Shown one piece after another: positions 4,356 through 32,891 of a stretch of 43,047 bases of DNA. The notes under the pieces were generated by a model. That model did not search any database, was not told the DNA's origin, and saw only the letters and a list, made by a program, of their open reading frames with translations. How positions within the stretch are numbered: the stretch's first letter is position 1; each line of letters opens with the position of its first letter. The stretch comes from an uncultured delta proteobacterium (GTDB lineage Bacteria > Desulfobacterota > Binatia > UBA9968): assembly GCA_963737905.1 (NCBI GenBank), contig CAVTUQ010000033.1:1-43047 (forward strand), written 5' to 3'. A program made the position numbers and the translations under genes.

Positions 4356-4783
4356 TTCGTAAAGTTGAAAAAGGAAACCCTAATTTACTCAGAACACACC
4401 ACAAGGCATTTTCTTTTCCATCGTGCAGAAATCGCTCGTGACCAAAACTGCATATAAAAAGCAGAAAGTCGCGCAGGCAACTAATCGGTCTTCCGTGAAT
4501 TTAGGCTGCAATTCTTTGAGGGAGACGACCGAGAGGAAAAAATAGGATTGGAGAGGAAAAATAGCTGCGGCTAAGTAAAGTGAAGACACGTTTGCGGCAT
4601 CAATGGATTCTCAGCTTCGCCGCACCATCACGCATCTGGAATCGATACCCGATAGCCTCTGTATCCTAGCTTAATCCGCATGCCTCCAAGCGGTTGTGGT
4701 CAAAGTAACTCAGAATACTCGGAGTCTCCTACGGTGTCAGATATTTCAGCCGGTAACGCCGGCCAAAAAAAGGATCGAGACGA

Positions 4784-4825
4784 TTTCAAAACCGAGCTGG
4801 ACATTTTCTCCCGCTTAGGGTAATC
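4784..4825 (+). repeat. 42-bp promoter-like repeat, copy 1 (copy 2 at 13327-13368)
   Basis: TTTCAAAACCGAGCTGGACATTTTCTCCCGCTTAGGGTAATC, 39/42 identical to copy 2; both lie upstream of + strand genes and are followed by AAATGAGCGA. Confidence 0.75.
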
Positions 4826-4887
4826 CGAGCATAACGTGATTCTGAAATGAGCGACCCGCCCCGATTCGGCAAGTAAGCGAGGTTAAG

Positions 4888-5799
4888 ATGAGCGAAGTAA
4901 GTGTGCAGGGCACGGAACATTGGACGCGCAAAGGCGACGTGCGGCTATTCCTGTGGCGGAAGAGCGCCGTCGCGCCGCGTGATGCAAAGGGGACGATTCT
5001 GTTCGTCCACGGTTCGTCGATGGCGTCGCAGCCGACGTTCGACCTGCAGGTGCCCGGCCGGCCCGATTCATCGGCGATGGATTGGTTTGCGGCGAGCGGC
5101 TTCGACACCTGGTGTATGGACAATGAGGGCTACGGACGCTCGGACAAGCGCCGCCCGATCAACTGCGACATCCCGAACGGCGCCGACGACCTCGCAGCGG
5201 GTACCGAATACATCTTGCAGACGACCGGCGCGTCAAATCTCCTGGTCTACGGTATCTCTTCGGGCGCGCTGAAAGCTGCGCTCTTCGCCGCGCGACATCC
5301 GCAGCGGGTCGCGCGTCTCGCCCTCGACGCCTTCGTGTGGACCGGCGAGGGTAGCCCGACCTTGGCCGAGCGGCGGAAAAGGCTGCCCGAGTTTCAATCA
5401 AAGCACCGCCGCCCGATCGACCGCGCCTTTGTACACAGCATTTTCGATCGCGACCATCCGGGCACAGCGGACGAGGCAACGATCCATGCCTTCGCGGACG
5501 CGATCCTCGCGCTCGATGACTCGGTGCCGACCGGGACTTACGTCGACATGTGCTCAAAACTGCCGCTAGTCGACCCGGCGAAAATCACCGCGCCCACGAT
5601 CATTATGCGCGGACAGTTCGACGGCATCGCCGGATTCGATGATCTCATCGAATTCTTCAAGCGGCTGCCGAATCCGGACAAGCAGTTCACGGTGATGGCT
5701 GGCATCGCGCACGCGAGCTTCCAGCAGAAAAACTACCTCAGTGTCTACCACATATTGCACGCGTTCTTCACCCAGCCTGAGCCGGTGTACCGCGGGTAG
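4888..5799 (+). CDS. Alpha/beta fold hydrolase
   Basis: ILFVHGSS, DNEGYGRS, nucleophile elbow YGISSG, MRGQFDGIA and GIAHAS (Ser-Asp-His triad pattern). Confidence 0.85.
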   Translation: MSEVSVQGTEHWTRKGDVRLFLWRKSAVAPRDAKGTILFVHGSSMASQPTFDLQVPGRPDSSAMDWFAASGFDTWCMDNEGYGRSDKRRPINCDIPNGADDLAAGTEYILQTTGASNLLVYGISSGALKAALFAARHPQRVARLALDAFVWTGEGSPTLAERRKRLPEFQSKHRRPIDRAFVHSIFDRDHPGTADEATIHAFADAILALDDSVPTGTYVDMCSKLPLVDPAKITAPTIIMRGQFDGIAGFDDLIEFFKRLPNPDKQFTVMAGIAHASFQQKNYLSVYHILHAFFTQPEPVYRG

Positions 5800-29849: not shown

Positions 29850-30682
29850 CTAGCGCAGATTGGCTTTGGCTACAAATTCGCCAAGCTCACGGTTAAATCG
29901 TGGCGCATCTTCCCAAAACGGCATGTGCCCGCCCGCTCGTAAAGAGACACCTGAGCATTAGCTACAACACTTTCGGTATAGCGGGCCATGGGTACGAGTG
30001 CCACCCGATCTTCCACACCATGGGTAACGAGCACCGGCACCTTGATCTTCCTGAGGGTCGCTTCATAGGCCGCCGGCCGATGCAAAAGATGGCGGCGCAC
30101 CGTAGCGGGAACCACCATGTTAGAGGCAAGCATCATTTCCATCTCGTCCGGCGGCAGGGCTTTGACCGTCGAGAACCGTAGAAAGGACCGCGTGCTCTCA
30201 ATATTTTCCGCCAGGTTTTCTGACACCATCTTGATTACCGCCGGCGTTGCGGGACCGAGTAACTCCGGAACAACTTTTGTAAACGCACCGACAAAGTTGA
30301 TCCCGGCGATATTTTTGTCGCCGTATTCCATTAGATATTCGACGACGATCCGGCCGCCATAGGACCAACCGACCAGCACCGGGCGCTTGAGCTTGGCTCC
30401 TTCAATCACAGCGTTCAGTTCTTCGGCCCAACGCTTGTGATCTCGGTAGTGTGCCGCATCAAGGGGTTTCTCCGAAGCGCCATGGCCGCGGATGTCGTAA
30501 GTGATGATCCTAAATGATTTCATCAACTCGCTGCCGAATTGGCGCGACCAAGACAGATGGCTCTGCGAAAAGCCGTGAATCAACAAGATCTCAAGTCCGT
30601 TGGGATTACCCCATTCTTGCGCGGAGATCATCACGCCGTCAGGTGTTCGAACTTTGAATGTTGTGGATTCCGCTTGAGCCAT
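29850..30682 (-). CDS. Alpha/beta hydrolase (non-heme chloroperoxidase-like), frameshift near 29930
   Basis: LLIHGFSQ, YDIRGHGAS, VGWSYGG, VTHGVED; the catalytic GHMPFWEDAPRFNREL lies in the shifted frame. Confidence 0.85.
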
Positions 30683-30712: not shown

Positions 30713-30797
30713 TCACCACGAAGGTCGCGAAGGACACGAAGAACCGGATAACGAGAGGGCACCTGAATCTGAAACAAAACTTTTTCCTTCGTGCTCT
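30713..30797. repeat. REP-like palindrome of CACGAAG (9-bp period) units, right arm interrupted by IS110
   Basis: Left arm CACCACGAAGGTCGCGAAGGACACGAAG; the right arm starts CTTCGTGCTCT at 30787-30797 and resumes CTTCGTGGT at 32346-32354. Confidence 0.8.
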
Positions 30798-30825
30798 CCT
30801 TAGAAAATTTGGCTGGGGGTGGGGC

Positions 30826-32100
30826 TTACGCTGCATCAGCCATAGGTGAAAGTTCCACTTCTTGTCCGAGTTCTTGGAGTCTTCGGACATGGTAACGAAT
30901 ACGTTGTTGAGGATTGAGTTTATCAAAGTAATCAACACCAAGATCCTGGTAGGGCTTGTCATCGCGGAGCATGAAATAGACAGTCACGAGCAGGCTGTGC
31001 TTGACGGCGCCGATGGCGCGTTTTTTTCCACGCCGGCCCGCCAGACGATGGTACTGCGCTTTGAAATAGCTGTTTTTGGTACGTACCGCCGCGTGCGCCA
31101 TCTCGGTCAGCACCGCGTCGAGGTGACGGTTGGCAGCGGGGGTTTTGCCGCTGCGCCGTTTGCCGGCACTTTCATGGTTACCCGGACAGCGGCCCGCCCA
31201 AGAGGCAAAGTGCTTGTGGCTCGGGAATCGACTCATGTCAGTCCCGGTTTCCGCCAACAGTGCTCTAGCCCCACGCTCGCCCACCCCCGCCATCGCATCG
31301 AGCTGCTCTACGGCGGCACGAAACGAGGGGGGCGCTACCGCCCCCAGCCGCTCGCTCACGCTGGCGATCTCCTTTTCGAGAAAGTCGTACTGTCCGAGCA
31401 ACTGCCGCAACAAAAAGCGGTGATGCTCGGTCAGCTCTCCTTCCAAAGCGCGCTGCAACTCGGGAATCTTGCCGCGAAGCTGGCGCTGGGCCAGATCCGC
31501 CAGCACGGTAACGTCCTTTTCCCCCGCAATCAGCGCTTCAATCATCTTGCGCCCCGACACCCCCAACACATCACTGGCCACCGAGCCCAACTTGATGTTG
31601 GCGGTCTCCAACACCTTCTGGATCCGGTTGTCGACAGCATTTCGCTGCTGCACCAGCTTGGTTTGTTGGCGGGTCAGATCGCGCAGCTCCCGCTGCTCGC
31701 GGTCGGGGACAAAACTCGGCCTGAGCAGCCCACACTGCAACAGCTGCGCTATCCACTCCGCGTCCTTCATGTCGGTCTTTCTCCCAGGCACCTTCTTGAT
31801 GTGCTGGGCGTTGACCACCCACACCTGAAAATGGCCTTCGAGCAGGTTGAACACCGGCTGCCAGTACACCCCCGTCGACTCCATCGCCACATGCGTCACT
31901 TTCAGCTCCGCCAACCACTGGCGCAACTCCAAAAGATCCGCCGCCATCGTGCCGAACTTGCGCAGCGTGCTCTGCACCGTGCCATCCTTCGAATCCAGGA
32001 TGCGCACGCACGCCACCACCAGTTTCTTGTGCACGTCCAATCCACACACACGCGCAAACAGCGCCTGCAGCCCCGCAAGGCTACTCTTCTTCTTGCTCAT
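30826..32100 (-). CDS. IS110 family transposase/recombinase
   Basis: DEDD RuvC-like domain (CGLDVHKK, AMESTG, RKTDMKDA) and C-terminal Tnp domain (GVG...A, FPSHKHFASWAG, ESAGK); RBS GGGGAG. Confidence 0.95.
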   Translation of the reverse strand: MSKKKSSLAGLQALFARVCGLDVHKKLVVACVRILDSKDGTVQSTLRKFGTMAADLLELRQWLAELKVTHVAMESTGVYWQPVFNLLEGHFQVWVVNAQHIKKVPGRKTDMKDAEWIAQLLQCGLLRPSFVPDREQRELRDLTRQQTKLVQQRNAVDNRIQKVLETANIKLGSVASDVLGVSGRKMIEALIAGEKDVTVLADLAQRQLRGKIPELQRALEGELTEHHRFLLRQLLGQYDFLEKEIASVSERLGAVAPPSFRAAVEQLDAMAGVGERGARALLAETGTDMSRFPSHKHFASWAGRCPGNHESAGKRRSGKTPAANRHLDAVLTEMAHAAVRTKNSYFKAQYHRLAGRRGKKRAIGAVKHSLLVTVYFMLRDDKPYQDLGVDYFDKLNPQQRIRYHVRRLQELGQEVELSPMADAA

Positions 32101-32119
32101 AGACGCTCCCCCTTTCTTT

Positions 32120-32280
32120 CGGTGCTCCCAGGGGACATCCGGCTTATTCGATTCTCCTTCGCGTGCTCTCGTCGGCAGACAACAAGGCGACAATCTGAGG
32201 CGCCGAAGGATGTCCCGGATCACACTTCGTGTCGGGCTCTCGCGCTCCAATCACTTACCGATCTCTTCGCTGGGGCACCG
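32120..32280 (-). ncRNA. Candidate IS110 bridge RNA
   Basis: Outer stem 32120-32131/32270-32280 encloses two hairpin domains (GGGACATCC 32132-32140 with GGATGTCCC 32208-32216; GATC 32218/32260) that contain matches to the element junctions. Confidence 0.6.
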
Positions 32281-32360
32281 CCCCCTTATTACCTCAACCC
32301 TCCCCCATTTTCATCTTCTGTGGGCGAGCGTAAGATCATGAATCACTTCGTGGTCATCCG

Positions 32361-32735
32361 TTAGTGCACGGACTTGCTACCGACGGTCGTAACCGTGATA
32401 TGCGACATCGGCGAATCCGCTTTCGCGCCGTGCCAGTGCCGCTCGCCGGATTTGATGTGCACGACGTCGCCGACGGTTATCTCGCGCTCTTCCTTCTCCG
32501 TTGCAACCATGCCCCGCCCGGATGTAACCACCAAGATCTGATCGCAGTCGTGGGTATGCCATCCGGTGGTGGCGCCTTCGCGGAAGTTCACCACGTTGCA
32601 GCGAAAGTTATCGGATTGGCCGTCGCCGATGATCGCTTGCCGCGTCCGGCTGACGGGTCCCCCTTTCCATCCGGCAATGGGCGTAGCGCTGTCCATGGGG
32701 TTTTCCGGCAGATCATGAATTTTGAGTACGCGCAT
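32361..32735 (-). CDS. Cupin domain protein
   Basis: TGWHTHDCDQILVVTSGRG...GDVVHIKSGERHWHGA. Confidence 0.85.
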   Translation of the reverse strand: MRVLKIHDLPENPMDSATPIAGWKGGPVSRTRQAIIGDGQSDNFRCNVVNFREGATTGWHTHDCDQILVVTSGRGMVATEKEEREITVGDVVHIKSGERHWHGAKADSPMSHITVTTVGSKSVH

Positions 32736-32891
32736 GTTTCGCCTCCTTCTTTTTTTCCTATGAGCCTTGTAGCACATTGCTGGACTCTTGTGTTAGCGCA
32801 TGATTGCACATGGGTATCGACTTGAGCTAAACAAGTTCCAAACTATCGGTGAGACCGAAGGATCGACCCTATTTTTTCAAAAAAGGACAAC

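Follow-up and report, generated by a model that had tools for sequence, protein, structure and literature searches.

What decides where an IS110-family insertion sequence (IS) lands, and how much of that decision can be read from the DNA on either side of it? The question is raised by a palindromic repeat one arm of which is cut in two by such an element, in a window of 43,047 nucleotides (the whole stretch of DNA analysed) from an uncultured delta proteobacterium of the Binatia (lineage UBA9968; assembly GCA_963737905.1, contig CAVTUQ010000033.1). The answer developed below is that the insert is very probably an ISPpu9-like IS110 element with a bridge RNA in its left end, directed to one dinucleotide of a REP-like palindrome, and that a set of miniature elements shares its ends.

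The palindrome consists of the following parts:

30713–30741, plus strand: left palindrome arm, with units ACCACGAAG GTCGCGAAG GACACGAAG of the CACGAAG type at 9-bp spacing
30742–30784, no strand: loop or spacer of the palindrome, 43 bp, from the hairpin fold of the rebuilt site
30785–30795, plus strand: inner right arm (CCTTCGTGCT C...), the target flank on the side of the element's right end
32348–32357, plus strand: outer right arm (TCGTGGTCAT), the target flank matched by the guide

The right arm is split, with CTTCGTGCTCT at 30787–30797 and CTTCGTGGT at 32346–32354, exactly in the letters and coordinates of the original prediction. The same prediction held that excising 30798–32347 restores an arm complementary to the left one, and it does so: excision brings two 9-bp units into phase and yields a right arm that agrees with the left one at 18 of 23 positions. 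The restored sequence folds into a single long hairpin of −32.3 kcal/mol, while a stretch of the same length across the occupied junction gives −19.4 (RNA parameters). Copies of the palindrome elsewhere in relatives align as far as 30797 (query positions 904–998). The palindrome is intergenic, lying between an alpha/beta-hydrolase gene (29870–30682, minus strand) and a cupin gene (32361–32777, minus strand), and the occupied unit is the outermost of the right arm, a CACGAAG-type unit that the element splits.

The genome as a whole (6.7 Mb, 46 contigs) shows what kind of sequence this target is. The bare heptamer CACGAAG is unenriched, with 1031 occurrences against 947 in a shuffled genome, so the target is an array and not a word. 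Two-unit arrays number 135 against 31 in the shuffle, arrays of three units at 9-bp spacing 36 against 0, and the complete unoccupied target form, CTTCGNGNNCTTCGTGG, 26 against 0. One of these 26 free sites is the left arm of the window's own palindrome, which read on the minus strand (30713–30741; contig C33) is an intact and perfect target; a second insertion, in inverse orientation, is therefore possible. Within the window CACGAAG occurs 14 times where 6.6 are expected, a count reached by 1 of 100 shuffles, and 15 of the 82 array clusters in the genome are two-armed. A short imperfect palindrome, intergenic and present in many copies per genome, is what REP/BIME-type repeats are defined by; the target is REP-like, with a modest copy number and an unusual build from 9-bp units. 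A literature search combining Binatia with ‘repetitive extragenic palindromic’ returned no report. The genome has five matches to PF01797 (Y1 transposase); in REP/RAYT systems a Y1 (RAYT) transposase is flanked by the repeats. Other palindromes have the same 9-bp-unit build with different words (CGCAAAG/CTTTGCG, CGCCAAG/CTTGGCG, CGCAGAG), located at C2:112361, C29:82652, C34:43931 and C37:59864 of genome G000, on contig C97 of G001 and at L055/G018. The range of such repeat architectures is wider than CACGAAG, and orthologous loci in related species hold different members of the 9-bp-unit family.

The insert between the two CT dinucleotides measures 1,548 bp, and its transposase lies on the minus strand:

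30796–30797, plus strand: CT (AG in element orientation) where the right end meets the flank, the crossover dinucleotide; CT flanks every copy at both ends
30798–30825, minus strand: IS right end, 28 nt without coding sequence, ending ...AAATTTTCTAAGG in element orientation
30826–32100, minus strand: IS110-family transposase gene of 424 codons plus stop, ATG at 32100–32098, identified by Pfam and by 81–98% amino acid identity to 12 loci
32101–32345, minus strand: IS left end, 245 nt without coding sequence, predicted bridge RNA gene from a consensus fold of ten sequences
32302–32345, minus strand: terminal module, the outermost ~44 bp of the left end, which miniature elements also carry and which resembles the A box of ISPpu9
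32346–32347, plus strand: CT at the left-end junction

Both IS110 domains are found in the 424-aa protein, PF01548 over positions 1–153 of a 155-position model (1.6e-31) and PF02371 over 3–87 of 87 (7.6e-19), which settles the family assignment made in the original prediction. The motifs GLDVH, AMESTG, KTDMKDAEW and ESAGK are legible in the translation and are presumably the catalytic ones, as in IS621. The frame is uninterrupted and covers both domain models, and the ATG start is kept in an alignment of 12 homologous loci. Terminal inverted repeats are absent, CCTTAG... and ...GAATCA not being inverted copies of each other, and so is a target duplication, since flank and element end share only 2 nt. 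The gene has 245 nt of non-coding sequence upstream and 28 nt downstream, a layout that places the element in the IS110 group; in the published description a long left and short right end mark that group and the reverse marks the IS1111 group (PMC11208160). By these features the insert is an intact, well-preserved and otherwise ordinary IS110-group element, predicted to be of the bridge-RNA-guided ISPpu9 type. Besides this group of copies, the genome (G000) has four IS110-family transposase genes that belong to other types (C10:17219, C25:71071, C37:85153, C19:97986); two of these are identical to each other and share 67% nucleotide identity with the window copy.

Other copies bear on both the boundaries and the target. 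A second copy in the genome (contig C26) is 94% identical, decayed by several frameshifts and without a right end; it shares the left-end junction ...GAATCA-CT-TCGTGGT and diverges beyond it. The left-end 20-mer has 12 copies in the genome, all 12 followed by CT and nine by the identical CT-TCGTGG (CTTCGTGG), while three sit in other sequence. G004 and G018, genomes from two further genera of the family, have full-length homologues that align with the window from 30795 to 32354, so that the boundaries are identical. For the right end, ten loci of 81–98% protein identity from a public genome collection, which yielded 152 relatives in all, were compared with the window copy; seven of these 11 right ends (the window's and six from other genomes) are followed by NN-CACGAAG-NN-CACGAAG, a CGCAGAG/CACAGAG repeat surrounds two, a further one adjoins another element and the last is in unrelated sequence, counts that overstate independence because L035, L036, L042 and L097 come from one assembly and two loci probably duplicate G004 and G018. 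The sites of L035 and L043 match poorly. A copy in another assembly (L034) encodes a protein 98% identical to that of the window copy.

These comparisons uphold the boundaries first proposed, which G004 and G018 reproduce, C26 shares at the left junction and the miniature elements share at both ends, and they agree with the proposed targeting of the CACGAAG family. The flanks of other copies, named in advance as the place to look, mostly show the same target and the same ends, apart from the three left-end copies in other sequence. The target had been written as CGTGCT-CT-TCGTGG; its TCGTGG side holds, whereas the two bases left of CT vary between copies, and specificity lies mainly on the TCGTGG side.

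CTTCGTG stands near each end of the element (30787–30793 and 32346–32352), and one might therefore take the palindrome or this heptamer for a terminal repeat of the element itself or a target-site duplication, with no target existing beforehand. This is highly improbable. The left heptamer is set off from the element by two variable bases and CT, and it varies between copies (CTTCGAG, CTTCGCG, CTTCGTA); moreover, the genome holds its 26 complete arrays unoccupied, and the same element ends recur in copies sited in other sequence. The reading preferred here remains that of an element directed into a palindrome already present.

Within that palindrome the point of exchange is narrowly defined. 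Flank and right end have no letters in common but AG in element orientation, or CT on the plus strand of the window; the transposase and its predicted RNA are read from the other strand. TG and a variable NN were considered as cores and set aside, AG alone being common to flank and right end in every copy. The 2-bp CT core originally proposed thus survives as the dinucleotide shared by both junctions, refined to AG in the orientation of the element. Among distant relatives the sense-strand core is AG, AA or AT (CT, TT or AT on the opposite strand), and the right-end pattern ATTTTC-N5-6-core is kept. The sense strand of IS621 is reported to read CT, with a near-invariant T (PMC11208158), unlike the AG found here; ISPpu9, read in the direction of its transposase, is described with AG at either end (PMC12288879), so the present arrangement has a published precedent.

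How the element might find this dinucleotide is suggested by its left end. IS110 bridge RNAs are described as having two internal loops, one for the target and one for the joined element ends, and the guides of both include the 2-nt core (PMC11208160, PMC11208158). Two candidate segments of this kind can be recognized in the window copy:

32223–32232, minus strand: target guide, RNA ACACGAAGUG, identical to flank plus AG plus nt 1–2 of the left end
32154–32161, minus strand: donor guide, RNA CGAAGGAG, identical to the terminal 6 nt of the right end followed by AG

The first, in RNA sense ACACGAAG-UG, corresponds to the left flank and element start, CCACGAAG-TG. The 7 nt that precede UG are identical to the copy's own flank in all but one of 13 copies; the exception is L043, with 3 mismatches in 8. 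The target guide is CACGAAG in nine copies, and that of L041 matches its flank at 8 of 8 positions. L055 has CACAGAG as both guide and flank, the same pair being found in G018 (probably the same element), and L040 has CAAAGGAG as both. Guide and flank vary together: there are three guide variants (CACGAAG, CACAGAG and CAAAGGAG), each matching its own flank. The donor guide agrees with the right end with 0–1 mismatch in all nine copies scored. Corresponding segments in 12 distant relatives of 36–56% amino acid identity (from Chloroflexota, Bacillota and a planctomycete) equal each element's own left flank and own right end, so the plan is general for the clade. Two of the four guides expected were found, namely the long target and donor guides; the short partner guides, sought as GUG-A-(C/U/G)U, are off by one in spacing. 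The segment AGAGCACG was rejected as a target guide: it stays the same whatever the flank, and distant relatives have it as GAGCACG.

The predicted structure is consistent with such a role. A consensus fold of ten close sequences has 50 pairs, 4 of them compensatory, and places two internal-loop domains within an outer stem; the outer stem contributes two compensatory pairs, and the first domain, closed by GAUCG/UGAUC, and the second, closed by GGGACAUCC/GGAUGUCCC, one each, a support that is modest given how closely the sequences are related. Both long guides fall on the 3' sides of loops in this fold. Taken as a single sequence, the left end folds no more stably than its shuffles (z = −1.1), it matches no Rfam family, and no sigma-70-like promoter is predicted in it in its integrated state. 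One 532-nt contig of an RNA run covers 32148–32354 and, as an assembled contig, is not proof of transcription. A word of 9–10 nt stands at two places in the same orientation, on the 5' side of the second RNA loop and in the left end just before the conserved ATGAAAAT motif (32196–32206, minus strand, against 32312–32322 in the window; also in L044, L051, L057, L070, L096 and L104); this word varies by lineage and is identical at both places within each element. One distant relative (L056, Maioricimonas sp., a planctomycete; 49% protein identity) lies between tandem 9-bp-spaced units, in the order CCACGGAG, element, ACACGGAGG.

On these grounds the 245-nt left end would encode a bridge RNA in which the internal-loop segment ACACGAAG plus UG pairs with the DNA strand reading CT-TCGTG at the target, and the second segment, CGAAGGAG, pairs likewise with the element's right end. 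The paired guides would bring a circular copy of the element together with the target, the DEDD/serine recombinase would exchange strands at the shared dinucleotide, and the CACGAAG repeat family would supply many intergenic landing sites.

RNA pairing might, however, be only part of the choice, with the site largely set by a structural gate: the protein would recognize the palindrome by its hairpin shape. Insertions into arrays all lie at the outermost unit, though inner units are often CACGAAG as well. The guide match is only 7–9 nt, and CTTCGTGG alone occurs 319 times in the genome against 263 in a shuffle, so that a short match is insufficient by itself to explain site choice. There is also the case of ISPpu10, for which a stem-loop in the target is reported as a second determinant (bioRxiv 10.64898/2026.03.19.712850). 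Against a leading role for shape, three guide variants each follow their own flank, one of these flanks, that of L040, not being a palindrome arm, and a short second guide with GUG, a candidate pairing, could also account for the following CAC(G) unit that seems to be needed. A site set largely by structure is accordingly rather unlikely, though it deserves some weight; direction by the guide remains the preferred account.

The same ends are also carried by elements without a gene. At least ten gene-less elements of about 200 bp with the ends of the IS, mostly at the same target, are new here. Ten of them, 192–207 bp long, start with CT-CCTT(T/C)GAAAA and finish with the last 41–48 bp (about 44 bp) of the IS left end plus CT; two more copies are more divergent. 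They thus share some 44 bp of one end of the IS and 12 bp of the other, the latter being the first 12 nt of the right end on the plus strand. CTTCGTG-type arrays flank six of the ten on both sides and a seventh on its right side alone; the site of an eighth is an array of CTTTGCG type, and two are in unrelated sequence. Their interiors contain strong hairpins, have no similarity to the IS and match nothing in Rfam. A 246-bp query spanning one miniature is matched in 32 of the 61 family genomes sampled, a tally that includes the unpublished genomes G012 and G053; its last ~55 bp alone match in many genomes, which points to other cargoes behind the same end. Among contigs from soil metagenomes, depth over 32264–32391 is several times that over the IS body, and contigs entering at 32305–32307 carry miniature-element interiors. 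The miniatures are most likely moved in trans by the enzyme and RNA of the IS.

Elements also occur head to tail. The donor junction anticipated for a circle, GAATCA-CT-CCTTAG, has a natural counterpart with the same order of ends at an IS/miniature junction of L037, with one extra base. At the right junction of L037, and in L045 and L046 (Dehalococcoidia relatives), a right end is followed by the shared dinucleotide and then by another element's left end, the form expected of a circle junction. In L040, from a public metagenome-assembled genome (82% protein identity), the IS copy lies directly after the right end of a miniature element, some 250 nt upstream of the gene, and the pair together occupies one CACGAAG site. 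Its target guide CAAAGGAG equals that miniature's end plus AG, where others have CACGAAG. Here the guide seems to have been naturally re-targeted to an end that belongs to its own family.

Whether the system still moves is a separate matter. Four sequencing runs yielded no contig joining 30797 to 32348 and no circle junction, in a material (assembled Logan contigs) that cannot show rare forms; loose contig ends at 30796, 32305–32307 and 32354 in these runs fit other copies and miniatures. No orthologous empty site was found, the downstream neighbour of the cupin gene differing in all nine relatives with a match. Two miniature loci compared with same-genus genomes likewise gave no clean empty site: at the first, G001 has a different palindrome family and the region is masked in G002, and at the second a different element of ~230 bp occupies the same position. 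This insert (G001:C707, ~4650–5030; locus L113), found where G000 has a miniature, follows CCACGAAG, ends ...AATAG and holds CGCAAAG-type units; the palindromic repeats themselves may have inserted at the shared dinucleotide.

One could conclude that element and miniatures are relics placed long ago and now immobile, so that the pattern is purely historical: the second full copy, in C26, is frameshifted and lacks its right end, evidence of circles or empty sites was found neither in the assembled contigs nor at the relatives' loci, and the miniature copies are 83–95% alike and not identical. Such a view is unlikely to be right, given that the window copy keeps its 424-codon frame open with both domain models covered end to end, and that the copy in another assembly (L034) encodes a protein 98% identical to its own. 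The preferred reading is an element that is probably still capable of movement.

The closest precedent is ISPpu9 of Pseudomonas putida KT2440 (PMC12288879), a likeness in plan, drawn from the published description. According to that account, ISPpu9 also inserts in palindromic extragenic repeats and has a long left box of 43 bp and a short right box of 16 bp. Its boxes (A/B, A'/B') also flank ssr9, a gene-less module that uses the transposase and to which the miniatures here are parallel, and IS and module are likewise described head to tail (PMC12288879). The present system differs in host phylum, in target repeat (here units of 9-bp period) and in the cargo of the small elements. Circles are experimental for ISPpu9 (PMC12288879), while the element here is known from its sequence alone. 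ISPpu10, another IS110 element of P. putida, is similar in that all its insertions are reported in copies of one stem-loop-forming intergenic sequence; the role of the hairpin is experimental there and is suggested here by the exclusive use of the outermost unit (bioRxiv 10.64898/2026.03.19.712850).

With IS621 of Escherichia coli, as published, the element has in common a DEDD and serine recombinase, a long left end with an RNA of two internal loops (predicted here), guides that include the core, a REP target, and the absence of inverted repeats and of target duplication (PMC11208160, PMC11208158). The long guides of IS621 are described on the 5' side of the loops, whereas the 8–10-nt guides here are predicted on the 3' side. 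The guide here would pair with the strand reading 5'-CT-flank, followed by 2 nt complementary to the last two bases of the element; a target guide plus 2 nt is the format of the IS621 right target guide with its handshake bases. A tentative extension, which is possible though we would not yet expect it to hold in full, is that the bridge RNA is a mirror image of the IS621 plan, with a target guide followed by handshake-like bases; that the guide is being re-targeted naturally among near-identical elements, to two repeat families and in one instance to the right end of a miniature of the family itself; and that the 44-bp module acts as a portable donor tag. If so, re-aiming onto the miniature's right end would build head-to-tail arrays, and the 44-bp left-end module would let unrelated cargo ride on the system.

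These results leave the known working of IS110 elements unchanged, and the kind of mobile DNA is one already known. What the locus appears to offer, as read from its letters, is a clean natural case of RNA-guided site choice by an IS110 element, in which the target, the donor ends and two guides are all legible. The natural guide/target pairs CACGAAG, CACAGAG and CAAAGGAG provide material for re-targeting tests in a lineage distant from IS621. The ISPpu9-type arrangement of an IS with its hitch-hiker is extended to an uncultured soil lineage, and palindromes of 9-bp period join the known safe landing sites.
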